Below are positions 1,243 to 37,692 of a DNA stretch of 64,000 bases, in pieces (the stretch's first letter is position 1; each line of letters opens with the position of its first letter). The translations under genes and the position numbers were made by a program. A model generated the notes under the pieces. The model was not told the DNA's origin and made no database searches. It saw only the letters and a list, made by a program, of their open reading frames with translations. Source of the DNA: a bacterium (GTDB lineage Bacteria > Electryoneota > RPQS01); NCBI GenBank assembly GCA_036504735.1, contig DASXUQ010000017.1, positions 33,349 to 97,348 of the forward strand. The letters are read 5' to 3'.

Positions 1243-4200
1243 ATGGGTGCGTTGCGACGGTGGGTTACGCAGTGGGCGGACAAAGAAGGTTTCCGGCCAA
1301 TGATCATTTTGTGGCTGGGGGTCAGTGTGACTTTGCTGTTCTTTGTCGCGGCTGGAGTGAGCGTTTGGAAAGCGAACTTCAGCATGATCCACGCCGAAGC
1401 CAGTGCGAGTGCCTTGCATGATCAGCTAAGGAGCCTAAGCTCCGACCACGAGCGGCGCTCCAATCTTCTCATGGATGCGGTGGAACAGCGTGATACCGTG
1501 TCCTGGGCAGATACCCCGCCGGATATGGCGATTGGTGTGATCGGCGCGCTGACGTTGATGGATGCGAGCACAGCCCTTACTTCGGCACGCAGCTACGTTG
1601 CGCCACTTCGGCTGGCAGCCGTACAGCTGCTTCACATGCAGGACACTGCCGTGCGTCTGCTCGGCAGCGGGAACTATGCTGCGGCACGCACGCTCATGGA
1701 GAGTGCGGCGTATGTCGCCGAGTGCCGCACTCTGCATGAGAACGTGCGCGCCATCATGCGCATCGCGAACGCACAAACGGATCGCGCCAACCGGATTTTT
1801 ACGGCGCACCTGATGTGGATCAGCGTGGTCGCCAGCATCTTCTTCCTGGCGTTGACTACCGCCTGGCTGGCCGTAATGCGCCTGATGAGCAGCCATCTCG
1901 ATGTGCGCAAAAAAACGGAAGCGGACCTGCGGGAGAGTGAGGAGAAGTACCGCACGCTGATCGACGCGCTGCCGCAGGCTGTGCTGATCGCCAAGGACGG
2001 GATCTTTGTCTTCTGCAATCCGCGTGCCGCCGTCATCTTAGGCGCTACCGGCGCCGGGAGTCTGATCGGCCTTCCCGCGGAAACGATTGTCCGTGAAGAA
2101 GACCGGGAGGGGCTGCTGGCGAACGTTGCGGCGCAGGCGCGACAGGATAGCGATCTGCCGGACCATTACACCGTGATGCTGCGCCGGCTGGATGGCTCCG
2201 AGTTTCCCGCCGAAGTGTTTGTGCGCTCTGTTTTGTACAAGGGTGCCGTGGCGGCCCAATACGTGCTGTCGGATATTACGGAACGCCAGCGTGGCGAGTC
2301 TGCGCTGCGCGAGAGCGAAGAGAAATACCGCACCCTGATCGACTCCCTGCCGCATTCGGTGGTGATCCTGCAGGATGGCAAAGTCGTTTTCGCCAACAAC
2401 GCAACCGCGGCGGCGCTGGGCTTTCAAAGTTCACAGGACTTGATCGGTCTGGACCGGGATGCCTTTGTGGCGCCGCGGGAGCGGGAACGCCTTAACAGTT
2501 ATACCACACGGCGTGTTGGCGGCGAGGGCGGGGCGCCCGATCACTACTCGGCAACTCTGCGCCGGCGCAATGAAGAAGAATTTCCCGCCGAGGTGTTTGT
2601 TCAGACCGTGGCGTACGGCGGAAAGCCGGCGTTGCAAACCGTGATTCTGGACGCGACGGAACGGCAACGGGCGGAGCATGCGCTGCGGGAGAGCGAAGAG
2701 CGATTCCGCAATCTGTCGGATACCGCGCCGGTATTGATCTGGATGGGCGGCGTCGGACGTCATACCTTCTACTTCAACAAATCCTGGCTGCGGTTTACGG
2801 GACGCTCCGTCAGTCAGGAATATGGCCACGGCTGGAAGCAGGACGTGCATCCGGACGATCTGCCCCGCTGCATGGCTGCCTATGAAAGCGCCTTCGAATC
2901 CCGCACCGCGTTCACCGTCGAATACCGCCTGCGCCACATGGATGGCACGGATCATTGGGTGCTGGACACCGGCGTGCCGCGTTTTACGATCGACGGCAAT
3001 TTTGCGGGGTACGTCGGATCCTGCGTGGACATCACCACGCGCCGGGGAACGGAAGAGGCGCTGCGCGAAAGCGAGCGACGGTTCCGCGAATTGGCGGATC
3101 TGCTGCCGCACACCATTTTTGAATCGGATGATCACGGTGCGCTGACGTTTGCCAACCGCAAGGCCCTGGAGGTCTTCGGCTACAGCGTGCAGGACATTGA
3201 GCGTGGCCCGAATCTTCTGGACATGTTGATTCCCGCCGACCGCGAACGCGCGCGAGAGAACATGTCGCGGATCATGCGCGGCGAGACCCTGCAAGGCAGT
3301 CAATACATGGCCCGGCGCAAAGACGGCCAACCGTTCCCTGTGGTGATCGATTCCAACGTGCGCATCGAGGACGGCAGGCCCTGTGGTCTGCGTGGCATGG
3401 TGATCGACGTTACCGAACGCCAGCGAACGGAAAATGAACTTCGGCACCTTAACCGCGCGCTCAAAACCACCGGTGAGTGCAGCCAGGCAGTGGTCCATGC
3501 TACGGACGAGGCCGCATTGCTGCACGACATCTGCCAGATTATGGTCCAGAGCGGCGGCTACCGCATGGTCTGGGTGGGCAAGATCGACCAGAATGGCGAC
3601 AAGACCGTTAAGCCGGCCGCGTTTGCGGGCAAAGAGCAAGGGTATCTGGAAAGCATCACCATTACGTGGGACGACAGCGTGGCGGGCAACGGGCCGACCG
3701 GCATGGCGATCAAGACCCTGAAGCCCTGGGTCAACCGGGACGTCGCCGGCACGGACTTCAATGCGTGGCAGGAAGAGGCCTTGAAACGCGGCTATCGCTC
3801 CTCGGTGGCGCTTCCGCTGGTCGGCGATGGGCGCTGTTTCGGTGTGCTGAGCATCTACTCGGCCCAGACCGACCATTTCGATCCTGCAGAGGTGAAACTG
3901 CTCAGCCAGCTCGCCGACGATCTGGCGTACGGCATCACCGCGCTGCGGGTGCGGCAGGAGCAGATGCGCACCGAAACCGCCTTGCGGGAAAGCGAAATCA
4001 CGCTGCGCCGCACCTTCGATCAGTCGCCCATCGGCGCGGGCATTGTTTCTCTGGAGGGCCACTTCCTGCGCAGCAATGATACACTCTGCCAGATGCTCGG
4101 CTACACCCGCGAGGAGTTGGAAACGCTGACCTACGTCGAAATCACTCACCCGGATGACTCGCCGCGCGACATGCGTAACGTGGCGCTGCTGGCGACGGGT

Positions 4201-5283
4201 GACCTCGAACTGTACGAAACCGACAAGCGTTATATCCGTAAGAACGGCACGGTGATGTGGGGCCATCTCTCGCTCAGTGCCGTCAAGGATCCGGCGGGCA
4301 AGGCCGTCTATTACCTGCCGATGGTGCAGGACATCACCGAACGCAAGCGGGTAGAAACCGCCTTGCTCGAGAGCGAGGAACATTTCCGCACGCTCTATGA
4401 TCAGGCGCCGGTGGGCTATCAGTCGCTGAATGAAGAGGGCTGCCTGATTGACGTCAACGAAACCTGGCTCAGCACTCTCGGCTATTCCCGCGAGGATGTT
4501 CTGGGACACTGGTTCGGGGACTTCCTTGCCCTGGCCGACAAGGATCTCTTTCGTCAGCGCTTTCCCATGTTCTGCAAGATCGGCGAAGTGCACGGCGTGG
4601 AATTCGACATGATCCGCAAAGACGGCTCGCGCATGACTGTCTCCTATGAAGGCCGCATCGCCCGGAACATAGACGGCGGCTTCAAACAGACCCATTGTAT
4701 CTTCCATGACATCACACGGCGCAAGGACGCGGAGAATCTGCTGCGTGAGCAGGCGGCGGCGTTCGACGCGGCCATGGACGGCATGGCGATTCTCGACTCG
4801 CAAGGCCGCTATCTGTATTTGAACGGCGAGCACGCGCGGCTCTATGGCTATGACAGTCCCCAGGAACTGGTCGGCAAGAGCTGGATGGTGCTGTATGATG
4901 ACGAGGAATTACGGCGGATGAAGACGGACGTGATCCCCGAGGTGTGGCGCAAGGGATGCTGGCACGGCGCGGCGGTTGGCAAACGGCGCGATGGCAGCCG
5001 GTACCGTCAGGAACTCTCCCTCTGCCGGACAGAGACCAATGGACTGGCTTGCGTGGTGCGCTACATCAGCGAGCGGGACGTCGCCGATCTTGAACCCTCC
5101 CCGCCTTCCGGCAAGCAGGAACGCGCCGTATCGCCCGAGGAGATCGAGTATCTCGCCGCCAAAGTCCTTCGGCAGCTCGAAGCTTTCGGCGGCTACCCCT
5201 GCAAAACGGAAGATCCTAACCTCCCGGCGGCCTCTCCAGAGGCACCGTCAGCGCAGGACGCCGCGCCGCCGACGAAAGAGTGA
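1243..5283 (+). CDS. membrane-anchored multi-PAS/GAF sensor protein without recognisable output domain
   Basis: Two N-terminal TM segments flank a ~150-aa helical region. About seven PAS units are introduced by repeated LRESEE(K/R)(Y/F)R linkers, plus one GAF domain. The C-terminus is P/A-rich, with no HisKA/HATPase, GGDEF or HD motifs seen. Confidence 0.8.
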   Translation: MGALRRWVTQWADKEGFRPMIILWLGVSVTLLFFVAAGVSVWKANFSMIHAEASASALHDQLRSLSSDHERRSNLLMDAVEQRDTVSWADTPPDMAIGVIGALTLMDASTALTSARSYVAPLRLAAVQLLHMQDTAVRLLGSGNYAAARTLMESAAYVAECRTLHENVRAIMRIANAQTDRANRIFTAHLMWISVVASIFFLALTTAWLAVMRLMSSHLDVRKKTEADLRESEEKYRTLIDALPQAVLIAKDGIFVFCNPRAAVILGATGAGSLIGLPAETIVREEDREGLLANVAAQARQDSDLPDHYTVMLRRLDGSEFPAEVFVRSVLYKGAVAAQYVLSDITERQRGESALRESEEKYRTLIDSLPHSVVILQDGKVVFANNATAAALGFQSSQDLIGLDRDAFVAPRERERLNSYTTRRVGGEGGAPDHYSATLRRRNEEEFPAEVFVQTVAYGGKPALQTVILDATERQRAEHALRESEERFRNLSDTAPVLIWMGGVGRHTFYFNKSWLRFTGRSVSQEYGHGWKQDVHPDDLPRCMAAYESAFESRTAFTVEYRLRHMDGTDHWVLDTGVPRFTIDGNFAGYVGSCVDITTRRGTEEALRESERRFRELADLLPHTIFESDDHGALTFANRKALEVFGYSVQDIERGPNLLDMLIPADRERARENMSRIMRGETLQGSQYMARRKDGQPFPVVIDSNVRIEDGRPCGLRGMVIDVTERQRTENELRHLNRALKTTGECSQAVVHATDEAALLHDICQIMVQSGGYRMVWVGKIDQNGDKTVKPAAFAGKEQGYLESITITWDDSVAGNGPTGMAIKTLKPWVNRDVAGTDFNAWQEEALKRGYRSSVALPLVGDGRCFGVLSIYSAQTDHFDPAEVKLLSQLADDLAYGITALRVRQEQMRTETALRESEITLRRTFDQSPIGAGIVSLEGHFLRSNDTLCQMLGYTREELETLTYVEITHPDDSPRDMRNVALLATGDLELYETDKRYIRKNGTVMWGHLSLSAVKDPAGKAVYYLPMVQDITERKRVETALLESEEHFRTLYDQAPVGYQSLNEEGCLIDVNETWLSTLGYSREDVLGHWFGDFLALADKDLFRQRFPMFCKIGEVHGVEFDMIRKDGSRMTVSYEGRIARNIDGGFKQTHCIFHDITRRKDAENLLREQAAAFDAAMDGMAILDSQGRYLYLNGEHARLYGYDSPQELVGKSWMVLYDDEELRRMKTDVIPEVWRKGCWHGAAVGKRRDGSRYRQELSLCRTETNGLACVVRYISERDVADLEPSPPSGKQERAVSPEEIEYLAAKVLRQLEAFGGYPCKTEDPNLPAASPEAPSAQDAAPPTKE

Positions 5284-5397: not shown

Positions 5398-5430
5398 GTC
5401 AGGCAAGCTCACCGCTTGCCTGACTTTTTT
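5398..5430 (+). terminator. intrinsic terminator after PAS/GAF sensor gene
   Basis: gtcaggcaagc-tcacc-gcttgcctgac followed by TTTTTT. Confidence 0.75.
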
Positions 5431-5675
5431 GTGCAAAATCATGTTTGCCTTCTACCGCTTCACCCTTGCTTTTCCCCCTGTCAAACTGTAGATTTCGAAG
5501 TCGTTAATTCAGCGAACGTTGGCCCACATTTTTTGATATAGTTAGAATAATTGGAGCCGCGTTGAATCGCCGAATTCACTGTTCCTCCATCCGTTTTGAG
5601 CCGTGGGTAACCTTGCGATTCGAGGAGCCATCCGCAGCCCTCTTTCCTTCCGTCCGAGTATGGAGTTGATGACTC

Positions 5676-8600
5676 ATGAAGATGAAGCCGAAGACAATGC
5701 CAAACACTTTAGTCAGGAAACCGCGCAAAACAGCAAAGGAAGCCAACACAGACACTTCAGACTCGTTGCTCCGGAATGTTTTGGCAGATGCGCCCGTCGC
5801 CTTGTGGGCGGTGGACAAAGACGGGCTGTATACGGTTTTTGAGGGGCGGGCCCTGCAAGAGGTCGGGCTGAACCCGGAGGAGCGCATCGGGCAGTCGATT
5901 TTCGAGATTTTTGCAGACCGCCCCGATGTTCTGGACCCGGTGCGCCGCGCTTTGGCTGGAGATGAGTGCTCCGCCGTGCTTGAGAATCGCGGCGCTGTGA
6001 GTGAGACTCGCTTTTCCCCGCAGAGGGATACTGCGGGCAACATCATTGGGGTGGTGGCTGTTTCCACGCTGATTACCGAGCGGGTGCGGGCTGAAGCCGA
6101 TTTGCGCCGCGTGAACCGCGCGCTCAGGCTGATCAGCGAATGCAATCAGGCCTTGGTGCGCGCAACGGATGAAAACACTCTGCTGCAGGACATTTGCTAC
6201 CTGCTGGTGGAGCACGGCGGCTACCGCTTTGCCTGGGTGGGGTACGCCCAGCGTGACAGCGGGAAAACCGTCTGGCCCATCGCGCACGCCGGGGTGGAAG
6301 ATGGCTACCTCGATACGGTGAATATTACCTGGTCCAACACACCGCATGGGCGGGGGCCAACCGGCACGGCGATCCGCACCGGCAAGCCTGTGGTCTCACG
6401 GTTCATCGCAACCGATCCGGTCACGGCACCCTGGCGCGAGAACGCGCTGAAACACGGTTACCAGTCCTCCTTTGTGCTGCCCCTTGCCGTCCATGGCGAG
6501 ACCTTTGGCGCTCTCACCATCTTTTCGAGTCAGCCGGACGCCTTCGACGAGTCCGAACAGCGTCTCCTGTCCGAACTGGCGGGCGACCTTGCTTTCGGCA
6601 TTATCGCGCTGCGTGACCGCGTGGCGCGCGAGCGCGGAGACGAACTGATCCGGGCCGCTAATGAGCGGCTCGAGCAGGATGTGCAGGAACGCACCGCCGC
6701 GCTGGAAGAACTGAATACCGAACTCGAAGCCGAAGTTCGCGAGCGGATCCGCACCGAGGATGCGCTCCGCGAATCCGAGCTGAAATACCGCATCGTCGCC
6801 GACAACACCTACGACTGGGAATTCTGGCTGGACGCCGAAGGCCAGTGCATCTACGTCTCGCCGTCATGCGAACGCATCAGCGGCTACAGTGCGCGGCAAT
6901 TTGCAGCCGATCCGCAGCTGAACACGAGCATCGTACATCCTGAAGACGCCGCCGCATTCCAGCGTCACTGCAACGCGGCGCTGCGGGGCGAGAGCACGCC
7001 GCCGATAGAATTCCGGATTATGCGGCACGATGGCGAGCTGCGCTGGATCGAGCAGGCCAGCCTGCCCGTGTTCGACAGCGGTGGCAGGTTTCTGGGCACG
7101 CGCGGCAGCAATCGGGATATCACCGAGCGCAAGAGAGCGCAGGACGAACTGGCCAGCGTGGCGCTGTTCCCGGCGGAGAATCCCAGTCCGGTGCTGCGTA
7201 TCGGGCGCGGCGGACAGTTGCTCTACGTGAACGCCGCCGGCCAGACGCTGCTGCGGGAGGAAGGCTGCACCCCGGATGAGCCCGTAACGGATCGTCTGCG
7301 GAACATGGCAAAGCAGGCACTGGAACAAGAGGAGAAACGGGAGACGGACTATGTTTGCCGCGACGGGCATTTCCTGATTATCTCCTGCATGCCCGTGCCG
7401 TCTCGCGGCTACGTCAACCTGTATGCCCGGGACATCAGTGAACGGCGGCGGATAGCGGAAAAACTGCGGGAACGCGAAGCCGCATTGCGCGTCGCCCAGC
7501 GTGTCGCCCACATTGGCCACTGGTTCTGGGACCCCGCTACCGATGAAGGGTTTTGGTCCGAAGAACTGTTTCGGATTTATGGCCGTGATCCCAACACCGG
7601 AACTCCCAGCTATTACGCGGAAGATGTGCGGCGTTCCTACGCTCCGCAGAGTCTGGAGGCCTTGAATGCCGCCGTGCAACGCGCCCTGCAGAACGGATCG
7701 CCGTGGGAACTCGAACTGGAGTTGGACACTCCGGACGGCCGGCATAAATGGCTGGACGCACGCGGGGAAGCCGACCGGAATGGCGAGGGCAAAATTGTCC
7801 GGCTGTATGGCACCGTGCAGGATATCACCCAGCGCAAACAGGCCGAAGAGGCGCTGCGGGAAGCCGAAGAACGGCTCAAACTCGGACTGGAAGCCACCAA
7901 TATCGGCATGTGGCATTGGGATGTTCCGAAGAATGTGGCTACCTACACACCCACCTGGTACACCATGCTGGGTTACGAGCCCTATGAATTGCCGCAATCC
8001 ACCGAAGCGTGGGAAAAGCTGCTTCACCCGGACGACCTCGGACCAACCAATGAAAAGGTGGCCGCGGCCTGGCGCGGAGACGTCAAGGAATTCGAAACAG
8101 AAGTTCGTATGAAAGCCAAGTCGGGAGAGTGGCGCTGGATCCTCAGCCGCGGCAAGGTAACGTCGCGCGACGCCGGGGGCAAGCCGCTGCGGATGATCGG
8201 CACTCACACGGATATTACGGCACTGAAGGAAACCGAGAACAGCCTGCGCTGGGAGCTGCAGGTGAACGCCGCGCTGGCCAATCTGCATTCGCCGCTTGTC
8301 AGCGCGTCCACTGCCGTGCGTGACATCGCCGACGCCGTCCTCAAACAGGCTCAGGACCTCACAGGCAGCCGTTTCGGCTTCGTCGCGACGATTGATTCGC
8401 TTACCGGCGAATGCCGCACCCACGCCATGACCGGCGACGCGCGGAAGGTGTGTGGAATCCGCACGGAACCCGGCTCGCTGATCTTCTCGCGCGGCGCGGA
8501 CGGCCAATATCATGGATTATGGGGACACTGCCTGAATACGCGGCAGGGCTTTCTGACCAATGCTCCGGCGTACCATCCGGCTTCCGGCGGTGTGCCGGAT

Positions 8601-9926
8601 GGCCATATCGCCATCAAGCGCTTCATCGGCGTGCCTGTCCATCTGGAAGGGAAACTGATCGGCGCGCTTTGCCTGATCAATTCCGACCGCGATTACACGG
8701 AAAGGGATCTGGTGGCGATCCAGCGGCTCGGCGACGTCTATCTGCTGGCGGTGCAGCGGATGAAGTCCGAGGAAGCCTTGCGGGAGAGCGAAGACCGCTA
8801 CCGGAGCCTCGTCGAAACCGCGCCGATTCCCATGATCATGAGCAGCAAAAGCCGCATTATCCTCGCCAATCGCGCCTTCCATACGCTGATCGGCACGGAT
8901 CAGATTGAGGATGATCTGGATCTGGAGATGCAGCGTTTCGTCCACCCGAAAGATTACGACAAACTCGCCGCCATTAAGCAGACGGTCCTCTCCCGGCGCG
9001 CGAAGACCGGCGTCGTCGAATTCCGCATGAAGCGGCTGAACGGCGCGATCCGTCATGTCGAAGCCGTGGCGCAGCCGATTGACCGCAACGGTGTGAACAG
9101 CACGCTGGTGGTCTTCCGGGACGTCACCGAACAGAAACACGCCGAGGACCTCATCCGCAAACATGCCATAGAGCTGGAGCGGCAGGTGGCCGAGCGCACG
9201 GCCCACATTCAGAAACTCGAACGACTGCGGGTAGAGGCCGAAAAGCAGGCGGCGATTGGCCGCATGGCGGCGCGGATCGCCCACGAGATCAACAACCCGC
9301 TGGCCGGCATCAAGAACAGCTTTCTGCTGGTGAAGAAGGCGATTCCCCCCACCTTCAAGCACTACGAGTTTGTGGGCCGGATCGACAAGGAACTGGACCG
9401 CATCGCCCGCATCGTCCGCCAGATGTTCGAAGTCTACAAACCCGAACGCAGCGCTCCTGCGCCGGTAGACGTTCCCGAGGTGCTGCGGGACGTGACGGCG
9501 CTGCTCCAAGGCAACGCGCGCGCACAGGGCGTCACGCTGGAAATGGATGCGTCCGGTGTGGACGGCACGGTTCACCTCCACGAAGACTCGCTGCGCCAGG
9601 CGCTCTTCAGCATCATCCAGAACGCCATTGAAGCGTCCGGGGCCGGCATGGTCGTCCGCATCAGTGCCACCGCGCGAGATCAGGTGCTGTCCGTTTCGGT
9701 TGCCGATCAGGGCTGCGGCATTCCGCCGGAAGTGGGCGCGCGGATTTTCGAACCCTTCTTCACCACCAAGGATGATCTGGTGTCGGGCGGGCTCGGCCTG
9801 GGCCTGTCCATCACCAAGGGCGTGGTCGAAGCTATGGGCGGCGTGCTCAATTATGAAAGTGAAGTGGGCAAGGGCACCACGTTTCAGGTGATCCTGCCCA
9901 ATCAATCTGTCCAAAGGACCGCATAA
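5676..9926 (+). CDS. multi-PAS/GAF sensor histidine kinase
   Basis: Several PAS units and two GAF-like regions. HisKA H-box is AARIAHEINNPLAGI. HATPase_c motifs are QNAIEAS, DQGCGIPPE..IFEPFFTTK and GGLGLGLSI. Confidence 0.85.
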   Translation: MKMKPKTMPNTLVRKPRKTAKEANTDTSDSLLRNVLADAPVALWAVDKDGLYTVFEGRALQEVGLNPEERIGQSIFEIFADRPDVLDPVRRALAGDECSAVLENRGAVSETRFSPQRDTAGNIIGVVAVSTLITERVRAEADLRRVNRALRLISECNQALVRATDENTLLQDICYLLVEHGGYRFAWVGYAQRDSGKTVWPIAHAGVEDGYLDTVNITWSNTPHGRGPTGTAIRTGKPVVSRFIATDPVTAPWRENALKHGYQSSFVLPLAVHGETFGALTIFSSQPDAFDESEQRLLSELAGDLAFGIIALRDRVARERGDELIRAANERLEQDVQERTAALEELNTELEAEVRERIRTEDALRESELKYRIVADNTYDWEFWLDAEGQCIYVSPSCERISGYSARQFAADPQLNTSIVHPEDAAAFQRHCNAALRGESTPPIEFRIMRHDGELRWIEQASLPVFDSGGRFLGTRGSNRDITERKRAQDELASVALFPAENPSPVLRIGRGGQLLYVNAAGQTLLREEGCTPDEPVTDRLRNMAKQALEQEEKRETDYVCRDGHFLIISCMPVPSRGYVNLYARDISERRRIAEKLREREAALRVAQRVAHIGHWFWDPATDEGFWSEELFRIYGRDPNTGTPSYYAEDVRRSYAPQSLEALNAAVQRALQNGSPWELELELDTPDGRHKWLDARGEADRNGEGKIVRLYGTVQDITQRKQAEEALREAEERLKLGLEATNIGMWHWDVPKNVATYTPTWYTMLGYEPYELPQSTEAWEKLLHPDDLGPTNEKVAAAWRGDVKEFETEVRMKAKSGEWRWILSRGKVTSRDAGGKPLRMIGTHTDITALKETENSLRWELQVNAALANLHSPLVSASTAVRDIADAVLKQAQDLTGSRFGFVATIDSLTGECRTHAMTGDARKVCGIRTEPGSLIFSRGADGQYHGLWGHCLNTRQGFLTNAPAYHPASGGVPDGHIAIKRFIGVPVHLEGKLIGALCLINSDRDYTERDLVAIQRLGDVYLLAVQRMKSEEALRESEDRYRSLVETAPIPMIMSSKSRIILANRAFHTLIGTDQIEDDLDLEMQRFVHPKDYDKLAAIKQTVLSRRAKTGVVEFRMKRLNGAIRHVEAVAQPIDRNGVNSTLVVFRDVTEQKHAEDLIRKHAIELERQVAERTAHIQKLERLRVEAEKQAAIGRMAARIAHEINNPLAGIKNSFLLVKKAIPPTFKHYEFVGRIDKELDRIARIVRQMFEVYKPERSAPAPVDVPEVLRDVTALLQGNARAQGVTLEMDASGVDGTVHLHEDSLRQALFSIIQNAIEASGAGMVVRISATARDQVLSVSVADQGCGIPPEVGARIFEPFFTTKDDLVSGGLGLGLSITKGVVEAMGGVLNYESEVGKGTTFQVILPNQSVQRTA
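9171..9443 (+). repeat. 273-nt segment near-identical to 13579-13851 (DHp-coding part of kinase)
   Basis: Hand alignment gives 7 mismatches in 273 nt, all synonymous. The encoded 88 aa, ELERQVAERTAHIQKLERL...RQMFEVYKP, are identical in both kinases. Confidence 0.9.
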
Positions 9927-9969
9927 TTTTTCGCGGCGCCTGCCGCCGCAATTTATAAAGACGGAGTCA

Positions 9970-11733
9970 ATGTTCATGGCGAAGAAGAAGATTGAGGCTG
10001 ACCGCACCTTGGGAGCACTCGCCAAGCTGCCGACAGGAATTTCGGGATTCGACGAAATTACGGGAGGCGGCCTGCCGGAGGGGCGCATCGCGCTCATCAC
10101 CGGCGGACCGGGAAGCGGAAAGACGCTGTTCAGCATGGAATTTCTCGTGCACGGCGCGGTGGATTTCGGTGAGCCCGGCCTGTTTGTGGCCTTTGAAGAG
10201 ACCGCCGAAGAGCTGGAAAAGAACGTTGCCTCGCTGGGCTTCGATCTGAAGGACCTCGAGCGGCGCAAAAAACTGCTGGTGGATTACATTCCCATCGAAC
10301 GCAGCGAAATCGAAGAGACCGGCGACTACGACCTCGAAGGGCTGTTCATCCGGCTCGGCATGATGATCGATTCCATCGGCGCCAAGCGCGTGGTGCTGGA
10401 CACGCTTGAGGCGCTGTTCTCCGGCTTTCCCAATGAACTGATTCTGCGCGCCGAACTCCGCCGCCTGTTCCGCTGGCTGAAGAGCAAGGGTGTGACCAGC
10501 ATCGTCACCGCCGAGAAGGGCGGAGGCGCCCTCACGCGCCACGGGCTGGAAGAGTATGTGTCCGATTGCGTGATTGTGCTCGACCATCTGGTGAAGGAAA
10601 ACGTCGCTACGCGCCGCCTGCGCGTCGTCAAGTATCGCGGCTCGCGCCACGGCACCAACGAATATCCGTTCCTTATCGGCAGTACCGGCCTTTCGATTCT
10701 GCCCATTACGTCGCTGGAACTGAACTACAACGTCTCTTCGGAGCGGATCTCCAGCGGCGTGCCGCGTCTCGACACCATGCTGGGCGCCAAGGGATTCTAC
10801 CGCGGCAGCAGCATTCTGGTATCGGGGACCGCTGGCACCGGAAAATCCAGTTTCGCCGCCACCTTCGTCGATTCCGTCTGCCGGCGCGGCGAGAGCTGTC
10901 TCTACCTTGCCTTCGAGGAGTCTCAGCATCAGATCATTCGCAACATGCGCTCCATCGGCATCGACCTCGAACAGTGGGTCAGGAAGGGACTGCTGCACTT
11001 CCACACCGTGCGTCCCACGCTCTATGGTCTGGAAGCTCATCTGGTGTCCATCCACGATCTGGTGGTCAAGTTGCAGCCGTCAGCCGTGGTGTTCGACCCC
11101 ATCTCCAATCTGATCAGCGTGGGCGATACCACCGAAGTGAAGTCCATGCTCACGCGGCTGATCGATTATTTGAAAATGTGCCAGGTGACGACCTTTTTCA
11201 CCAACTTGAGCATTGACGCAGCGAACCACGAGACGGCGGATGTGGGGGTTTCCTCCCTGATGGACGCATGGATTGTGCTACGCGATACGGAGAGCGAAGG
11301 CGAGCGTAATCGCGTCATTCATATTATGAAAGCGCGGGGTATGCCCCATTCCAATCAACTCCGCGAATTTCTGCTCACCGACAACGGCGTCGTGGTCAAG
11401 GACGTCTATATCGGTGAAGGCCGGGCGTATACCGGATCGGCGCGAGTCAAGCAGGAGGCGCAGGATCTTGCCGATGAGATCCGGCGCAAGCAGGACGTCG
11501 AGCGCAAGGTGCGGGAAAATGAGCGTAGCCGCAAGGTGATCGAGGCTCAGATTATCGCGCTGCAGGCGCAACTCGAACGCCAGGCGGACGAAGCGGAGCA
11601 ATATATAGAGCAGGAGAAGAGCACCGAGCGCCTTGCAGACGAGAATCGCCGGCGGCTGGCGGCTTCCCGCCACAGCGATGACTCGGAACCGGCGCCGGAA
11701 GGACGAAGGAAAAATGGGAGAAGACAAGTATGA
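9970..11733 (+). CDS. kaiC: circadian clock protein KaiC homologue with long C-terminal coiled-coil-like extension
   Basis: Duplicated RecA-like domains with Walker A GGPGSGKT and GTAGTGKS, and EE pairs in FVAFEETAE and YLAFEESQH. Also ...[14 protein letters not shown]... and ...[14 protein letters not shown]... blocks. The last ~110 aa are charged and heptad-like. Confidence 0.9.
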
Positions 11734-12134
11734 GTAAATCCGCCGCGACCACAGACGCCAAGAGCAGCGGCGCCAAAACCGGCAGCCGTTCTTCGAACTC
11801 ATCGAAAGCCAAGTCCCCCGGAACGCCTATTATCAAAACCGAGTTGCCAAGTAAGGAAGACTTCTGGGAACTGCGGCTCTATGTGGCCGGACAAAGCACC
11901 AAGTCCCTGACCGCCTTTGCCAATCTCAAACGGATGTGCGAAGAGCATCTCGAAGGCAAATACCGCATTGAAGTCGTTGACCTGCTCGAAAATCCCCAAC
12001 TGGCGAAGGGAGACCAGATCCTGGCCATCCCCACCCTCGTGCGCAAATTACCCGAACCCCTGAAGAAGATTATCGGCGACTTATCCAATACCGAGCGCAC
12101 CTTGGTCGGCCTCGACATCCGTCCGCGTTCGTAA
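11730..12134 (+). CDS. kaiB: KaiB homologue with ~45-aa Ser/Lys-rich N-terminal extension
   Basis: Core [67 protein letters not shown]. The ATG overlaps the kaiC stop (ATGA). Confidence 0.85.
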
Positions 12135-12149
12135 GGAAAGACCTGACTC

Positions 12150-12530
12150 ATGACAAAATCCATCAGCGCGGTGACCCAGCAGTTCGAGGCTGCCCTTAAG
12201 AAAAGTACTCGCGAGGGAGAATCCTATGTGCTGCGGTTATACGTGGCCGGAACCACGCCCCGCTCCACGAGTGCCATTCGGAACATCAAAGACATCTGTG
12301 AAGCGCACCTCAAAGGACGCTACGACCTCGAAGTGATCGACATCTATCAGCAGCCGGTGCTGGCCAAAGGCGAACAGATCATCGCCGCGCCCACGCTGAT
12401 CAAACAACTGCCTATGCCGCTGCGCAAGTTTATCGGCGATATGTCGGATACTGAAAAAATTCTGGTCGGTCTGGACTTACGACCGAAAAAGGATACCGCA
12501 AGTGCTGGAAGAAAAGAAGAAAATAGCTAA
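12150..12530 (+). CDS. kaiB: KaiB homologue (second tandem copy)
   Basis: LRLYVAGTTPRS..NIKDICEAHLKGRYDLEVIDIYQQPVLAKGEQIIAAPTLIKQLPMPLRKFIGDMS. It starts 15 nt after the first kaiB. Confidence 0.9.
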   Translation: MTKSISAVTQQFEAALKKSTREGESYVLRLYVAGTTPRSTSAIRNIKDICEAHLKGRYDLEVIDIYQQPVLAKGEQIIAAPTLIKQLPMPLRKFIGDMSDTEKILVGLDLRPKKDTASAGRKEENS

Positions 12531-14337
12531 ACGGGACCTCGACGGCGGAAGCGATGAGATGGCCGAACTTCGCGCCCGGCTCGAGGAGGCCGAGGAGACA
12601 TTGCGCGCCATTCGCGAAGGCGAAGTGGATGCGGTGATCATGTCCGGCGCGCGGGGCGATCAGGTCTACACCCTGATGGGCGCCGATGCGCCCTATCGCG
12701 TGATCCTGCAAACCATGAGCGAGGGCGCGTGCACGCTCGATGCTGCCGGAACCGTGATGTACTGCAACCGCCGCCTGGCCGAGATGCTCAAGCTGCCCAT
12801 CGAACAGGTCATCGGCTCCGATGTGTTCCGTCATATCCCACAGCAGGATCGCGGAAGCTTTGGCGCGTTTCTCAGTCAGGCGGGCAACCAAGCGGTTCAC
12901 CATGAGGCCTCGCTCCGGCTGGCTGGCGGGGACACGCTGCCGGTGCTGTTGTCCGCCAGTCCCCTCGCGTTGGATGGCACGCGGCATGTCTGCGTCATTG
13001 TGACGGATCTTACCCAGCGGAAACAGATCGAGGAAGAACTCCGCTGCGCCCGCGATGAACTGGAACTGCGCGTGGCGGAGCGCACCGCCGAGCTGACCGA
13101 AACGAATTTCCGGCTCGAACAAGAGATTCAGGAGCGCACACAGGTCGAAGAGGAACTCCGCCAGAGTGAAGATGAACTCCGCCGCAGCGAACACAACCTG
13201 ATTCAGGCGCAGCGCATCGGCCACACGGGAAGCTGGGAGTGGGACGTGCGCACGAGTGACGTCTTAGCGTCCGAGGAGTTTCACCGCCTGTTTGGCATGG
13301 GAAAAGAGGCCGCGCTCTCGCTGCCGACGCTGCTGGCGCGTGTTCACCCGGAAGACATGGACCTGGCGACGAGTATGCTGGAGAAGGTGCGTGCGGGTCT
13401 CCCTCGGGTAAATGTTGATATCCGGCTCCCGCTGCCGGACGGCGCGGTGCGGATCCTCAACGTCGAAGGTGAAGTCACCGACGCCGATGCCGCTGGCAAA
13501 CCGCGCTGCATGGCCGGTACCGTGCAGGATGTCACCGAGCGCAAGCGCGCTGAAGATCAGATCCGCCGCTACAACGAAGAGCTGGAGCGGCAGGTGGCCG
13601 AGCGCACGGCCCACATTCAGAAACTCGAACGGCTGCGGGTGGAGGCGGAGAAGCAGGCGGCGATTGGCCGTATGGCGGCGCGGATCGCCCACGAGATCAA
13701 CAACCCGCTGGCCGGCATCAAGAACAGCTTTTTGCTGGTGAAGAAGGCGATCCCCCCCACCTTCAAGCACTACGAGTTTGTGGGCCGGATCGACAAGGAA
13801 CTGGACCGCATCGCCCGCATCGTCCGCCAGATGTTCGAAGTCTACAAACCCCAGCGCAACGCCCCGGCGCTGTTCAGCGTGTCCGATGCCGTGCGCGATG
13901 TGGTGGCGCTGCTCCACGGCAATGCCCACGCCAAGCACGTCACGCTGGAAATCGGAGCGGAAGCCGCTTCTGCCGTGGTGTATCTGCACGAAGATTCGGT
14001 GCGCCAGGTGCTGTTCAGCATCATCCAGAATGCCATTGAAGCGTCGCCGGAAGGCGGAACTGTTCGGATTGGCGCCGAGTTGCAGGATCATATGTTGAAA
14101 CTGGATATCGTGGATCAGGGCTGCGGCATTCCGCCGGAGGTGGGAGCGCGGATTTTCGAACCGTTTTTCACCACCAAGAATGAACTGGCCTCCGGCGGTC
14201 TCGGCTTGGGTCTGTCGATCACCAATGGCGTGGTGGAAGCCATGGGCGGCCATCTCAGTTACGAAAGCGCAGTCGGCAAGGGGACGGCCTTTAAGGTCAC
14301 TCTGCCGCTCAACCATACCAACAAGGAAGTCCAATGA
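12502..14337 (+). CDS. PAS sensor histidine kinase downstream of kaiB
   Basis: Coiled-coil N-terminus, two PAS units, then an H-box and HATPase_c motifs as in the 5676-9926 kinase. The start is either GTG 12502 (overlapping kaiB) or ATG 12559. Confidence 0.85.
   Translation: MLEEKKKIAKRDLDGGSDEMAELRARLEEAEETLRAIREGEVDAVIMSGARGDQVYTLMGADAPYRVILQTMSEGACTLDAAGTVMYCNRRLAEMLKLPIEQVIGSDVFRHIPQQDRGSFGAFLSQAGNQAVHHEASLRLAGGDTLPVLLSASPLALDGTRHVCVIVTDLTQRKQIEEELRCARDELELRVAERTAELTETNFRLEQEIQERTQVEEELRQSEDELRRSEHNLIQAQRIGHTGSWEWDVRTSDVLASEEFHRLFGMGKEAALSLPTLLARVHPEDMDLATSMLEKVRAGLPRVNVDIRLPLPDGAVRILNVEGEVTDADAAGKPRCMAGTVQDVTERKRAEDQIRRYNEELERQVAERTAHIQKLERLRVEAEKQAAIGRMAARIAHEINNPLAGIKNSFLLVKKAIPPTFKHYEFVGRIDKELDRIARIVRQMFEVYKPQRNAPALFSVSDAVRDVVALLHGNAHAKHVTLEIGAEAASAVVYLHEDSVRQVLFSIIQNAIEASPEGGTVRIGAELQDHMLKLDIVDQGCGIPPEVGARIFEPFFTTKNELASGGLGLGLSITNGVVEAMGGHLSYESAVGKGTAFKVTLPLNHTNKEVQ
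13579..13851 (+). repeat. second copy of the 273-nt DHp-coding segment
   Basis: See 9171-9443. The flanking sequence diverges sharply at both ends. Confidence 0.9.
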
Positions 14338-15089
14338 TGACCAACGGAAAAATCCTGATCGCGGATGACGAAGAAACCTTCCTGATTTCGACATCCGCGC
14401 TTCTCACGGATGAAGGGTATGAATGCGCTACAGCTTCCAATGCCGCCGATGCGGCCACGCTGCTGCGCGACAATGAATTCGATCTGCTCATCGCCGACAT
14501 CAAGATGCCGGGCAATGCGGAACTTGAACTGGTGCACGAACTGCCGATCCTCGCCGAGGGTATGCCCGTGATTCTCGTCACAGGCTATCCCACGGTCAAT
14601 ACCGCCATTCAATCCATTCGCCTGCCTGTGGTGGCCTATCTGATCAAGCCGGTGGACTTCGGAGAGCTTCTGGCTATGGTTCACAGCGGCGTAGAATACA
14701 CCCGGGTTCACCGCGCCGTCAAGAACACCCGCAGCCGTCTCGGGCAATGGGAGGCCTCTCTGCATGATCTGCAGCGGGGATATGAGGTATCGCCCAAGGT
14801 GAACTCCGCCGGATCGGTGGACAGTTTTCTCAAACTGGCTCATGATAACATCATGCGCTCGTTCGGTGACCTCCTCAATGTCTCGCGGGCTCTTGCCAAT
14901 CAATCAAAAGTGCAGTTTGTTTGCCACCTCGCCAACTGCCCGAAGCTTCAGATGTACGAGCAAGCCATTGAAAATACTGTAAAGACCCTTGAACGTACGA
15001 AGTCCGCATTTAAGTCTAAAGAATTAGGAGATTTACGGAAGAAGCTTGAGGAGCTTCTGGAGAGCGAGAGGCGCGCCGAGAGTGTCTAA
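14334..15089 (+). CDS. response regulator receiver protein with uncharacterised ~130-aa helical C-terminal domain
   Basis: REC motifs KILIADDEE, DLLIADIKMPG and AYLIKP. The start overlaps the kinase stop (ATGA). No HTH or enzymatic output motif was recognised in the C-terminal half. Confidence 0.8.
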   Translation: MMTNGKILIADDEETFLISTSALLTDEGYECATASNAADAATLLRDNEFDLLIADIKMPGNAELELVHELPILAEGMPVILVTGYPTVNTAIQSIRLPVVAYLIKPVDFGELLAMVHSGVEYTRVHRAVKNTRSRLGQWEASLHDLQRGYEVSPKVNSAGSVDSFLKLAHDNIMRSFGDLLNVSRALANQSKVQFVCHLANCPKLQMYEQAIENTVKTLERTKSAFKSKELGDLRKKLEELLESERRAESV

Positions 15090-15163
15090 GTGGCAGAGCC
15101 TCGTGCCGCTTTGCCTCCTCCAACTGCTTCCCACGTTCGCCAAAACGTCCTAAACATCTATTT

Positions 15164-15197
15164 AAACACAGTATTTACTTATATTAATACTGTGTTT
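15164..15197. other. 12-bp perfect AT-rich inverted repeat (AAACACAGTATT-N10-AATACTGTGTTT) 75 nt after the receiver gene
   Basis: Read directly from the sequence. It could be the operon terminator stem (it ends in TTT) or a protein-binding palindrome. Confidence 0.35.
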
Positions 15198-15280
15198 GAG
15201 AGCCCACTCGAACTCTCTTGGAGTACCACGACCCGCGCAGGGGTCAACCGAACTTTTTTAGATTTTCTTGTTCAAGCTAC

Positions 15281-15309
15281 TTGACAAAGTGCTGGTAGGT
15301 CTATTATAT
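15281..15309 (+). promoter_or_regulatory. sigma70-like promoter
   Basis: TTGACA, a 17-nt spacer, then TTATAT (the overlapping TATTAT/TATATT alternatives are also possible), in an AT-rich island. Confidence 0.45.
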
Positions 15310-15541
15310 TGTGTCAGCATACGGTTTGACAAGGTTCGCGGCTCGCGCGGACCGCCTTGTCGAGTAGGTACAGGCCTGCAAGTCGAAGGCGCAACCCTCC
15401 CCATTTCTGCCTCTAAGGGCATCCGACATGGGTTGTAGGTTGGGCCTTTTTTGTTGTCTTTAAATTTCTGTAAAGTTGCATTATTTAAATAGATAAAGCC
15501 CCACTTAGGGCGATTGGAACTTGCGCTGGCCGGAGGTAGTT

Positions 15542-34130: not shown

Positions 34131-35525
34131 TCAGCGCCGGTTTTTAAGCAGATACTGCTCGATCTCCGGCAGGCCGCCCTGCATAATCATATAGCCGTCA
34201 ATCGGCTCGCGCTCGGTCAGTTCGCCGCAGATCGGTGTCAGCATCAGCTTCTTCACCTCTTCGCGGTCGTGGGTATGTCCCAGCGCCCAGCCGAGCTTCA
34301 CATACGCCGTTTCGGGAATCATGTTCCCCGCGGGGATGACGCCGAGGTCCATGATGTCGCGCCCGGTGTCGTAGACATACATCTGCACATAACCCCACAG
34401 CGTCTCCACGCACATGTAAATATGCACGCCCGCGTCTATCGCGCGTTTGATGGACGGGTAGAGGGGCTTGTTGAAATGCCCCAGGCCCGTTCCCGCGAAC
34501 ACGATGCCCTTGTAGCCGTTGTCCACCAGCGAATCGATCATGTCCGGCTTCATATTCGGATAGTAATACAGAATCGTCACCCGGTCATCGAACACCGCGT
34601 CCAGCTTCAGTGTGCGGCTCTTGTCGCGCTTGCGGTAATCGGTCTTGATGTGCCGGATCTCGCCGTTGCGCACCGTGGCCACGGGAGTGTCGGAAATGGT
34701 GCGGAAGGTCGAGCGATACGACGAGTGCATCTTGCGCACGCGCGTGCCGCGGTGCAGCAGATCATACTGGTCCGATGTCGGACCGAACATGCACACCAGC
34801 ACTTCGGCGATATCCCCGTGCGCGGCGGCGTACGTCGCGTCAATCAGGTTCAACGCTGCGTCCGAGGAAGGACGGTCCGAGGAACGCTGCGAGCCCACCA
34901 TCACAATCGGCACCGGCGGATCCTGCACCATGAACGTCAGCGCCGCCGACGTGTAGTGCATCGTATCCGTGCCGTGTCCGATCACAATCCCGTCCGCGCC
35001 GTTCTCGATCTCTTCCTTGATCGCGTTCGCCGTGCCGATCCACGCTTCCGGAGTCATGTTCTCCGAAAAGATCGCATAAATTCGTTTTGTCGTCAGGTTG
35101 GCGATGTCCGCCAGCTCCGGCACCGCGCCGTACAGTTCTCCGGGCGAGAACGCCGGAATCACCGCGCCCGTACGGTAGTCGAGGCGGCTGGCAATCGTGC
35201 CGCCCGTTCCCAGCAGCGTCACGTTCGGCTTGACCGGATCGTAGGGGAATTCCTTCTCGGGAATCTTGTAATTGGCCTTCTTGTAGCCGGTCTCTTTTAT
35301 CGTGCGGACACGGTCCACATTGATGCCGACATTATACCCGGTGCACAATTTGAGCACAATGTGATGCGGATTGCCCGTCTCCGCGCGCGGCAGAATCAGC
35401 CCTTCAAAATGCCCGTCGAGCGTCTCGATCTGGACATCCGACCACACGCGCACCTTGTTCTTTTTAAGCACGCTGAGTGCCGGATCGCGATAGCCCGGAT
35501 AATCCTGTTGCTGTTGTTCAGTCAT
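34131..35525 (-). CDS. gatD: Glu-tRNA(Gln) amidotransferase subunit D (archaeal-type, asparaginase-like)
   Basis: LLGTGGTIASRLDYRTGAV, IGHGTDTMHYT and VGSQRSSDRPSSDAALNL signatures, plus a ~100-aa N-terminal extra domain. Confidence 0.8.
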   Translation of the reverse strand: MTEQQQQDYPGYRDPALSVLKKNKVRVWSDVQIETLDGHFEGLILPRAETGNPHHIVLKLCTGYNVGINVDRVRTIKETGYKKANYKIPEKEFPYDPVKPNVTLLGTGGTIASRLDYRTGAVIPAFSPGELYGAVPELADIANLTTKRIYAIFSENMTPEAWIGTANAIKEEIENGADGIVIGHGTDTMHYTSAALTFMVQDPPVPIVMVGSQRSSDRPSSDAALNLIDATYAAAHGDIAEVLVCMFGPTSDQYDLLHRGTRVRKMHSSYRSTFRTISDTPVATVRNGEIRHIKTDYRKRDKSRTLKLDAVFDDRVTILYYYPNMKPDMIDSLVDNGYKGIVFAGTGLGHFNKPLYPSIKRAIDAGVHIYMCVETLWGYVQMYVYDTGRDIMDLGVIPAGNMIPETAYVKLGWALGHTHDREEVKKLMLTPICGELTEREPIDGYMIMQGGLPEIEQYLLKNRR

Positions 35526-35588
35526 GGTAATCTATAGTCTCGTAGAAGAAAAATCAAACAGTCGCCGTCATGCCGCCGAAACTCTGTC

Positions 35589-35613
35589 GTAGGGGTACGA
35601 CATGTCGTGCCCG
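35589..35613. repeat. palindromic element, family 3 (GTAGGGGTACGACATGTCGTGCCCG)
   Basis: 23/25 identical to 37659-37683. Both lie in intergenic spacers of the gat operon. Confidence 0.65.
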
Positions 35614-35628
35614 CGTTTCCAAAGTATC

Positions 35629-36279
35629 CTACTTCTCCACCCGGTACCTCACCCACACCACGCCGCCCGGCAGCTTCTCGCTGTGCGTCAGCGTCACCGG
35701 CAATTCGCTGTGCACCGTGCGGAACAGCGCGCGCGCCCCGTCCCCCGCCAGAACCGGACTGATCAGCAAACTAATTTCGTCCACCAGCCCTTCGCGCAGC
35801 AAGATACCGTTCAGCACCCCGCCGCTGTCCACGCGCACGGTCCTTACGCCGTACAGATCGTGCAGCGTCTCCAGCGCGCTCTTCAAATCCACCTGCTCTT
35901 TGCCCGCAATCACGCACACCACGTTCTTCTTCGACAGGTATTCGCAGTGGGCAGGAGGTGTTGCCATGGACATCAGCGCCACGCCGCCGCGCCAATAGGA
36001 CTGCTTCAACAAATGCTCCCAGCAGCGGACTCTCCCTCTGCTGTCAGGGATCACCAGCAGCGGCCGTTCGTCATGCGCACCGCTCGCGCGCGGTGTCACC
36101 TTGCGCGGATCGTCGACATTCGCCGCACTGGGCGAGGCCAGAATGGTCTCGCTCCCCGCCAGCGTCGCGTCTTCCTTCCACGTCCCCGCGAGTTCATAGA
36201 ACAACCCGACGTCGGGCGTAAAACCATCGATACGTCCGTCTAAACTGACAATATTATGCAGAACAATTTTGGGTAGCAT
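35629..36279 (-). CDS. RibD C-terminal-domain / dihydrofolate-reductase-like reductase
   Basis: IVLHNIVSLDGRIDGF..ATLAGSETIL..LVIPDSRG..VRVDSGGVLNGILL pattern. Confidence 0.6.
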   Translation of the reverse strand: MLPKIVLHNIVSLDGRIDGFTPDVGLFYELAGTWKEDATLAGSETILASPSAANVDDPRKVTPRASGAHDERPLLVIPDSRGRVRCWEHLLKQSYWRGGVALMSMATPPAHCEYLSKKNVVCVIAGKEQVDLKSALETLHDLYGVRTVRVDSGGVLNGILLREGLVDEISLLISPVLAGDGARALFRTVHSELPVTLTHSEKLPGGVVWVRYRVEK

Positions 36280-36292
36280 AAGAATATGAGCA

Positions 36293-36320
36293 CAGGGGCG
36301 GGCACTTCGGCCCGCCCCTG
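36293..36320 (-). terminator. GC-rich hairpin between asnA and the reductase gene
   Basis: caggggcgggc-acttcg-gcccgcccctg, an 11-bp stem. Confidence 0.45.
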
Positions 36321-36345
36321 TCTGGGATGAACCGTTGTGTATCTC

Positions 36346-37479: not shown

Positions 37480-37658
37480 TGTTTTCTCCCAAAAGATTGT
37501 GTGAATGAGGGTACGTTAACTATCCGCAAGCCGATCTCATTTAGCCGGCGGATGAAAAACAGTCATTCAGAAATCAGTCAGCGATCAGTAAGCATTCTCC
37601 TTTCTAAGAGTCCCTTCCCCTTTCAGTGGGAAATGGGATTCCTTTCCTATACTCCGCA

Positions 37659-37683
37659 GTAGGGGTACGCCATGCCGTGCCCG
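37659..37683. repeat. palindromic element, family 3, second copy
   Basis: GTAGGGGTACGCCATGCCGTGCCCG. Confidence 0.65.
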
Positions 37684-37692
37684 TCTTATCTG

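Follow-up and report, generated by a model that had tools for sequence, protein, structure and literature searches.

A predicted KaiA-independent KaiC2-type module with two KaiB paralogs in a kinase–regulator locus of a non-cyanobacterial bacterium

Introduction

Operons in which kaiC and kaiB are followed by a gene for a PAS-domain histidine kinase (kaiC-kaiB-PAS/HK) are known from Rhodopseudomonas palustris and Rhodobacter sphaeroides (PMC4794148). The R. palustris operon has a single predicted promoter and encodes a KaiA-free proto-circadian timer with a demonstrated effect on fitness (PMC4794148). KaiC proteins of the R. sphaeroides type have a C-terminal extension of ~50 amino acids (aa) that forms a coiled coil linking two hexamers (Pitsawong et al. 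2023, PMC10076222); they autophosphorylate without KaiA and show hourglass behavior driven by ATP/ADP (PMC10076222). Bacteroidetes with only KaiB2- and KaiC2-type proteins have also been described (Schmelling et al.). Here, we analyze a locus of this kind in a 64,000-nucleotide stretch of DNA (hereafter, the window) from a bacterium of the Electryoneota (GenBank assembly GCA_036504735.1, contig DASXUQ010000017.1, positions 33,349–97,348). In this locus, one kaiC gene and two kaiB genes are flanked by genes for two PAS histidine kinases, HK1 and HK2, and HK2 is followed by a response regulator. An earlier note on the window had read the six genes as a complete input, oscillator or timer, and output system, with PAS/GAF sensing on both sides of KaiC and KaiB.

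Contacts of Kai proteins with their partners have been described in other systems. A Pseudomonas KaiC binds the N-terminal PAS domain of the kinase encoded beside it, as well as a single-domain regulator (bioRxiv 10.1101/2022.01.26.477890), and fold-switched KaiB is bound by the multi-PAS protein KidA (PMC11665890). In Synechocystis, the gene for KaiA3 lies next to kaiB3 and kaiC3, and its product combines a REC-like domain with a KaiA-like helical one (PMC11372060).

Layout of the locus and comparison with described systems

The six open reading frames (ORFs) share the plus strand and are tightly packed, with coordinates that agree to the base with those of the earlier note. HK1 (5676–9926) is a multi-sensor kinase of 1416 aa, in which Pfam models identify several PAS domains, two GAF domains, HisKA and HATPase_c. 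It is followed by kaiC (9970–11733; alternative start at 9976), which encodes a 587-aa protein of the KaiC2 type, and by two kaiB genes, one for the type 1 protein KaiB-1 (11730–12134; 134 aa, including a 45-aa low-complexity N-terminal extension) and one for its type 2 paralog KaiB-2 (12150–12530; 126 aa). HK2 (12502–14337; GTG start, alternative ATG at 12559) encodes a 611-aa kinase with a cap helix and PAS domain (cap+PAS), PAS_3, HisKA and HATPase_c. The response regulator (14334–15089) consists of a REC domain and, at its C-terminus, a conserved helical domain in which a C-x4-C-P motif is invariant. Domain searches thus agree with the earlier assignments, with PAS, HisKA and HATPase_c on both kinases, GAF on HK1 and REC on the sixth product. 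Also confirmed were the ATGA overlaps that join kaiC to the first kaiB (11730–11733) and HK2 to the regulator gene (14334–14337), the 43-nt gap between HK1 and kaiC, and the 15-nt gap between the kaiB genes. A GGAG precedes the kaiC ATG inside the 43-nt gap, and no terminator was found in the HK1–kaiC interval. Being on one strand and tightly spaced, the window genes match the layout of kaiC-kaiB-PAS/HK operons, and their arrangement is not unusual.

The R. sphaeroides KaiBC system (8DBA, 8FWI and 8FWJ; PMC10076222) is like the window in having a tailed KaiC with a Ser-Ser site, no KaiA and an operon-linked PAS kinase. It has one KaiB, whereas the window has two paralogs, both of which carry the fold-switching-linked residues G88 and D90 (Synechococcus elongatus numbering) where the R. 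sphaeroides protein has N/K; the window further has a second kinase, upstream, together with a dedicated regulator, and comes from a different phylum. R. palustris (PMC4794148) shares with the window the order kaiC, kaiB, PAS histidine kinase, but it has a single kaiB and no upstream paralogous kinase, and no adjacent regulator is reported in PMC4794148. In the Pseudomonas modules (bioRxiv 10.1101/2022.01.26.477890), a KaiC homolog likewise lies beside a kinase and a non-DNA-binding regulator, but there is no linked KaiB, the proteins belong to other KaiC groups, and their function is linked to stress resistance rather than timing. The KaiABC-SasA/CikA-RpaA system of S. elongatus has homologous KaiC and KaiB proteins and two kinases that read their state and share one regulator. 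In contrast, the window has no KaiA and no SasA-type KaiB-like domain, no CikA-type pseudo-receiver was identified in it, and its regulator has no recognizable DNA-binding domain. Finally, Synechocystis KaiA3-KaiB3-KaiC3 (PMC11372060) resembles the window in that a REC-domain protein is encoded beside kaiB and kaiC, but KaiA3 ends in a KaiA-like four-helix domain and its partner KaiC3 has no tail, whereas the window regulator has no KaiA-like sequence or fold.

Subtype of KaiC

Family profiles identify the products of kaiC and the two kaiB genes as genuine KaiC and KaiB proteins, as had been proposed. KaiC matches PF06745 twice (E = 4e-113) and scores 717.7 bits on NF006799 (cutoff 408). Both Walker A motifs (aa 45–52 and 286–293) and both catalytic Glu-Glu pairs (aa 76–77 and 316–317) are present, as the earlier note had stated. 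The protein sides with a characterized timer KaiC and not with generic RecA-type ATPases, the alternative raised in that note. Its closest solved structures are those of R. sphaeroides KaiC (8DBA and 8FWI; 625–629 bits over residues 17–568), whereas S. elongatus KaiC scores ~326 bits in the same PDB sequence search. On the cyanobacterial KaiC1 equivalog model TIGR02655, the window KaiC reaches 335.2 bits, below the cutoff of 546.25.

Two traits of the KaiC2 clade are present. The predicted phosphorylation pair is Ser-Ser rather than Ser-Thr: Ser428 and Ser429 (codons at 11251–11256), within GVSSLMD (aa 426–432), align with S413/S414 of 8DBA (GVSSLMDAW against GLSSLMDGW), the residues replaced by glutamates in the phosphomimetic structure 8FWI. 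In addition, the protein continues past the A-loop into a C-terminal extension, for which the clade standard is ~50 aa. This extension (aa ~492–587; 11443–11730) has a heptad-like hydrophobic pattern, is predicted to form a coiled coil, and aligns without large gaps with the coiled-coil tail of 8DBA up to query residue 568 (chain residue 555). By these sequence traits, we assign the window KaiC to the known KaiA-independent KaiC2 clade. Extended KaiC homologs are abundant (at least 8000, all with E ≤ 1e-50), and the best non-self match is 74 per cent identical. A six-frame translation of the window, searched also with the KaiB hidden Markov model (HMM), contained no KaiB- or KaiC-like sequences beyond kaiC and the two kaiB genes.

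The tandem KaiB pair

Both KaiB proteins pass the PF07689 cutoff of 27 (KaiB-1, 94.3 bits; KaiB-2, 92.5 bits), and both fall below the cutoffs of the cyanobacterial equivalog models NF006798 (92.4 and 104.7 bits, respectively, against 110) and TIGR02654 (88.3 and 101.6 bits against 145.3). In the PDB, KaiB-1 matches R. sphaeroides KaiB best (8FWJ_M, 103 bits), and KaiB-2 scores about the same against the KaiB proteins of S. elongatus (4KSO, 96.9 bits) and R. sphaeroides (8FWJ, 96.8 bits).

For comparison, we assembled 80 loci from species-representative genomes, in which KaiC is 56–62 per cent identical to that of the window. Their phyla include Acidobacteriota, Bacteroidota, Desulfobacterota, Planctomycetota, Nitrospirota, Chloroflexota and Pseudomonadota, and the set also contains archaea of the methanogenic or Methanoperedens type. 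Among the 73 loci with enough downstream sequence, 50 have a type 1 and then a type 2 kaiB after kaiC. In these tandem pairs, the first kaiB product is always most like KaiB-1, which is 63–87 per cent identical to the first KaiB of the loci, and the second is always most like KaiB-2. The two types are told apart by the residues W7/F24/I41/L47/N49/R66 (type 1) and Y7/I24/L41/Y47/Q49/K66 (type 2); KaiB-2 of the window carries the type 2 residues Y7, L41, Y47, Q49 and K66. Type 1 is far more conserved than type 2 (mean pairwise identity of 72 and 56 per cent, respectively), and an unrooted neighbor-joining tree has one split, with type 1 on one side and type 2 plus the reference proteins on the other, with a single exception.

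One locus in the set (L017) has two extended kaiC genes separated by ~1 kb, and one or more kaiB genes follow each of them. Two cyanobacterial loci with an extended KaiC (L053 and L064, from Coleofasciculus and Floridaenema) have a single type 2-like KaiB and no cap+PAS gene, in contrast to nearly all non-cyanobacterial loci.

A conserved Kai module in other genomes

In a Pfam scan of neighboring ORFs from 65 loci, the product of the gene after the last kaiB has a PAS domain in 59 and HATPase_c in 49. Several phospho-acceptor families are represented (HisKA in 28 cases, HisKA_3 in 17, HisKA_2 in two and HWE in two), and in 16 loci the product is fused to a REC domain. Because many partner kinases use HisKA_3, HisKA_2 or HWE cores, an initial tblastn synteny screen with the HisKA core of the window as the query undercounted downstream kinases (25 of 56 loci), and the ORF scans replaced it.

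What the post-kaiB proteins have in common is their N-terminus, a cap helix and PAS domain with the signature RLEEAEETLxAIRxGxVDAxV...QVYTLxGADxPYR. In 64 of 69 loci, this module is encoded immediately downstream of the final kaiB. On a cap+PAS profile, the post-kaiB gene scores ~165–235 bits in most loci, with weaker or truncated versions (92–130 bits) in a handful, while other PAS domains of the same loci score at most 55 bits; the distribution of scores is bimodal, with 113 PAS domains below 60 bits and 72 at 80 bits or above. The module of HK2 (aa 18–188; 12553–13065) scores 218.6 bits, against 35.5 bits for the best PAS domain of HK1, and the signature is therefore found on HK2 only.

The gene upstream of kaiC is heterogeneous across the set and is a kinase gene in only 6 of 47 loci. 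The symmetrical system of the earlier note, with sensing on both sides of the timer, is thus not a conserved design. The unit that is conserved consists of kaiC, a type 1 kaiB, usually a type 2 kaiB, and a gene for a cap+PAS signaling protein. The same KaiC-KaiB-KaiB-PAS order recurs in dozens of genomes and so is not due to chance. Two close KaiC relatives (L084 and L085, 71 and 68 per cent identical) have a KaiC-KaiB-KaiB-cap+PAS kinase series in unrelated neighborhoods. The Kai-linked kinases of these relatives have HisKA_2 cores, unlike HK2, whose core is of the local HisKA type. The kinase half of the PAS protein is evidently exchanged freely, which points to cap+PAS as the element that couples it to the Kai proteins.

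We considered whether the type 2 KaiB could be an adaptor that the PAS kinase requires, and found no support for this idea, as a cap+PAS gene is present in 15 of the 16 loci that have only type 1. The tandem-KaiB/cap+PAS pattern is plain in annotated genomes; in the searchable open-access literature, we found no description of a conserved tandem KaiB pair or of the cap+PAS signature.

The HK1–regulator locus with and without Kai genes

The two closest relatives of the regulator on long contigs come from loci without kai genes. In one (L083), an HK1 ortholog directly precedes the regulator gene; its identity to HK1 is 50 per cent in the sensor region and 76 per cent in the kinase core. In the other (L082), two kinase genes are followed by the regulator gene; the second of these kinases has a cap-less PAS domain that scores 92 bits on the cap+PAS profile. 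Downstream, both loci have the same genes as the window (HTH_17, M48 peptidase, EamA, MntP, sucA and sucB), and their SucA proteins are 84 per cent (L083) and 81 per cent (L082) identical to that of the host, which makes them close relatives. Conversely, in the nearest KaiC relative (74 per cent identity; L086/L087), an HK1 ortholog (81 per cent identity over 210 aa) lies directly upstream of kaiC, and L086 shares the entire HK1-KaiC-KaiB-KaiB-cap+PAS order with the window. Within this lineage, some loci therefore have the Kai cassette and others lack it at a single site, flanked by a resident kinase and the regulator of that kinase. Because close relatives have the HK1–regulator pair without kai genes, we interpret HK1 and the receiver protein as a resident two-component pair that holds the cassette, with HK1 outside the conserved Kai module.

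Matching phospho-acceptor domains of HK1 and HK2

The dimerization and histidine phosphotransfer (DHp) domain of two-component kinases sets both dimerization and partner specificity. The DHp segments of HK1 (aa 1168–1257; 9177–9446) and HK2 (aa 362–451; 13585–13854) are essentially identical, with one difference in 90 aa (98.9 per cent identity). Their DNA is 93–100 per cent identical, with seven synonymous differences in 80 codons, whereas the flanks are 63–85 per cent identical. Over the same domain, HK2 is only 84–87 per cent identical to full-length HK1 orthologs. The adjoining ATPase domains give a different picture: those of HK1 and HK2 share 66 per cent protein identity (63–85 per cent in DNA), HK1 is 71–75 per cent identical to its own orthologs, and HK2 is 58–66 per cent identical to any of the sequences compared. 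Because the DHp domains are 98.9 per cent identical and the ATPase domains only 66 per cent, the kinase core of HK2 is best explained as an old local paralog in which only the DHp domain has recently been homogenized with that of HK1, and the identity of the two segments indicates gene conversion. With essentially identical DHp domains, both kinases are predicted to serve the same regulator, and we infer that HK1 and HK2 act on one regulator; they could also form heterodimers.

The regulator and the absence of KaiA

The REC domain of the regulator matches PF00072 with 75.1 bits. Its family comprises over 1100 full-length homologs of ~250 aa, each with a REC domain and the conserved helical domain. 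Members occur in Zixibacteria, Latescibacteria, Nitrospinota and Scalindua, among others. An AlphaFold2 model (mean predicted local distance difference test [pLDDT] score of 80) shows the REC domain followed by long helices, with the invariant C197 and C202-P203 in a low-confidence loop. The C-terminal helical domain has no Pfam model and no fold match in the PDB; with its C-x4-C-P motif, it may be an output domain that responds to redox state or metals. As searches detected no DNA-binding domain in the regulator, it probably works through protein–protein contacts.

As the earlier note had stated, there is no KaiA in the 64-kb window: the KaiA Pfam model matched neither the cluster proteins (E ≤ 0.01) nor 30 other large ORFs (E ≤ 1e-5 or 1e-3). 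A SasA-type N-terminal KaiB-like domain was likewise not found on HK1 or HK2, both of which start with PAS domains, by the six-frame search with the KaiB HMM. We also examined the regulator itself as a KaiA3-like protein and rejected it. Neither Pfam nor a PDB sequence search of the C-terminus gave a KaiA match, and a fold search with the whole protein was dominated by REC domains, with no match of KaiA or RsbU type. Modeled in isolation (pLDDT 77; predicted template modeling score 0.42), the C-terminal domain had a best Foldseek match with E = 2.0 and no match to KaiA or RsbU. Furthermore, the same regulator occurs in the kai-less relatives L082 and L083.

Boundaries of the unit and other features of the window

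The intrinsic terminator that had been noted upstream of HK1 is present on the plus strand (5398–5430): its 11-bp stem (5398–5424 with the T-run that follows) has seven GC pairs, leads into TTTTTT, and is the strongest within 16 kb. It is predicted to close the upstream PAS/GAF gene and to mark the 5′ boundary of the unit. This upstream gene (1243–5283, plus strand) stops just short of the terminator. Its product, 1346 aa long, has a membrane-like N-terminus and carries seven PAS domains plus one GAF domain, yet lacks an output domain; L083 has two separate genes (450 and 673 aa) in the orthologous region. The 245-nt gap upstream of HK1 contains a weak sigma-70-like promoter candidate (5519–5548, plus strand; TTGGCC-18-TAGAAT, 9/12 matches), a consensus match that may not fit the promoter rules of the host. 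Past the regulator gene, the hairpin reported earlier is real (dG −16.6 kcal/mol, z −5.3). It is AT-rich, spans 14 bp (15162–15199, plus strand) and begins 73 nt after the stop codon. Without a U-tract it is not a canonical intrinsic terminator; it is possibly a terminator or a protein-binding palindrome.

Further downstream, promoter-like sites with 11/12 matches occur on both strands (plus, 15281–15310; minus, 15332–15303). On the plus strand, the site is followed by a 150-nt GC-rich structured stretch (dG −63.6 kcal/mol, z −3.6) that ends in a hairpin and T-run at ~15430–15455. This region (15281–15460) could be a small RNA; it has no Rfam match, and an Rfam scan of the whole window found no RNA family.

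The host is not a cyanobacterium, as the earlier note had recognized: the nearest named relatives of its SucA are in Calditrichota and KSB1, and sorting tails of the type IX secretion system are encoded. The window also encodes 2-oxoglutarate dehydrogenase. On the minus strand, 34131–39633 groups genes for a GatD-like protein (asparaginase and GatD_N domains; 34131–35525) and AsnA (36346–37479) with a gene for a GatE-like 646-aa GatB_N protein that has a large insertion (37693–39633). GatDE is the archaeal-type Glu-tRNA(Gln) amidotransferase and would not be expected in a bacterium from the neighborhood of Calditrichota/KSB1. Four minus-strand genes (40711–45227) resemble those of a soluble NiFe hydrogenase, encoding a large subunit (40711–42072), an Oxidored_q6 small subunit (41990–42769), an NAD-binding/Fe-S subunit (42771–43751) and a 4Fe-4S subunit (44067–45227); a cyclic-nucleotide-binding ORF (43625–44410) overlaps this cluster. 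Three minus-strand paralogs have a PPDK_N (phosphoenolpyruvate-utilizing, ATP-binding) domain (48293–51265, 55114–58305 and 58298–60169), one of them with an N-terminal REC domain and one with a C-terminal nucleotidyltransferase domain. Two paralogous glutamate/leucine-type dehydrogenases, also on the minus strand, lie less than 9 kb apart (51360–52766 and 60205–61587).

Discussion

We regard it as fairly probable that the locus is a KaiA-independent KaiBC timer module of the KaiC2 type, situated between the resident kinase HK1 and its regulator, with HK2 as its reader. By homology with R. sphaeroides KaiBC, KaiC would autophosphorylate on Ser428/Ser429 without KaiA and would probably assemble into a double hexamer joined by the coiled coil. 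By the same analogy, the cellular ATP/ADP ratio would drive KaiC into or out of its phosphorylated state, bound KaiB would accelerate dephosphorylation, and KaiBC would act as an hourglass that reports metabolic or day–night state rather than as a free-running clock. The oscillator of the earlier note finds no support, the nearest characterized system being an hourglass. Gene order and the described precedents suggest that the cap+PAS module of HK2 may read the state of KaiC and KaiB and set the kinase/phosphatase balance of HK2. Judging from the DHp identity, this timer input and the environmental input of the PAS and GAF domains of HK1 may converge on one regulator.

Several points weigh against this interpretation. 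The second KaiB has a role that is not explained here, and the cap+PAS gene does not require type 2. KaiC is only ~60 per cent identical to R. sphaeroides KaiC (estimated by eye from the alignment), and its dodecamer formation and ATP/ADP response are extrapolated from that protein. KaiC homologs of Legionella and Pseudomonas work in stress responses, with no timing role demonstrated. Although the DHp domains predict a shared partner for HK1 and HK2, the two kinases have different ATPase and sensor domains. The tight spacing, and only the spacing, suggests that the six genes are one operon. Lastly, the cassette was either gained at the HK1–regulator site in the window or lost in the relatives, and the cap-less PAS domain of L082 may be what remains of one that was lost.

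Those stress-related homologs lead to a rather unlikely alternative, in which KaiBC is not a timer but a signaling ATPase of stress or stationary phase that modulates the two-component pathway, as proposed for Legionella and Pseudomonas; phosphorylation would then track culture age or stress and not day–night metabolism. Indeed, the phosphorylation of Pseudomonas KaiC, which interacts with the adjoining kinase and regulator, varies with culture age and not with circadian cues. In addition, the window shows no phototrophy genes for a host placed near Calditrichota/KSB1, and the regulator family also occurs without kai genes. However, no KaiB is linked to the KaiC-like proteins of Pseudomonas, whereas the window KaiC is far nearer the hourglass KaiC of R. 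sphaeroides, keeps the Ser-Ser site and the coiled-coil tail, and has two KaiB proteins. An ATP/ADP hourglass and a "metabolic stress sensor" are, moreover, compatible with each other. It is also unlikely that HK1 is a mere neighbor that acts independently of a functional unit composed of kaiC-kaiB-kaiB-HK2-regulator. A kinase gene upstream of kaiC is indeed rare among the loci (6 of 47), HK1 lacks the cap+PAS signature, and kaiC has its own ribosome-binding site in the 43-nt gap. Yet the converted DHp domain, at 98.9 per cent identity against 84–87 per cent for orthologs, is hard to explain unless both kinases were selected for the same partner. The HK1 ortholog is the kinase directly paired with the regulator in relatives, the nearest KaiC relative keeps it immediately upstream, and no terminator separates HK1 from kaiC.

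A self-sustained circadian oscillator, in which the second KaiB or the receiver protein (as a REC-KaiA chimera like KaiA3) replaces KaiA, is highly improbable. The regulator does recall Synechocystis KaiA3 in combining REC with a helical domain, here one without an assigned function, but Pfam, PDB sequence and fold searches gave no KaiA match, and relatives without kai genes encode the same regulator. KaiA3, furthermore, accompanies KaiC3-type proteins without a C-terminal extension, whereas the extended KaiC2 clade shows KaiA-independent autophosphorylation and hourglass behavior.

By itself, the locus adds little, as KaiA-free KaiC2-type kaiC-kaiB-PAS/HK operons are already described, annotated in genomes and extremely common. 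Its value lies in comparison: the module shared by bacterial and archaeal phyla has a second KaiB paralog and the cap+PAS signature, both of which are absent from the experimental models R. sphaeroides and R. palustris, with one KaiB each. As a tentative possibility, somewhat doubtful at present, the dominant non-cyanobacterial Kai system may be a four-part module of an extended KaiC, two distinct KaiB proteins and a cap+PAS protein, which can be plugged into a two-component pair. If so, type 1 KaiB would regulate KaiC, and type 2 KaiB would tune the signal or route it to the cap+PAS protein, in a KaiA-free counterpart of the cyanobacterial hub in which fold-switched KaiB recruits CikA and KidA; in the window, the module would have been wired to the resident pair through gene conversion of the phospho-acceptor domain. 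The lineage offers a natural comparison of the same kinase–regulator locus with and without the cassette, and a clear example of two sensor kinases apparently kept matched to one regulator by gene conversion. These points are testable leads on the route by which Kai timers outside cyanobacteria signal their state to the cell.

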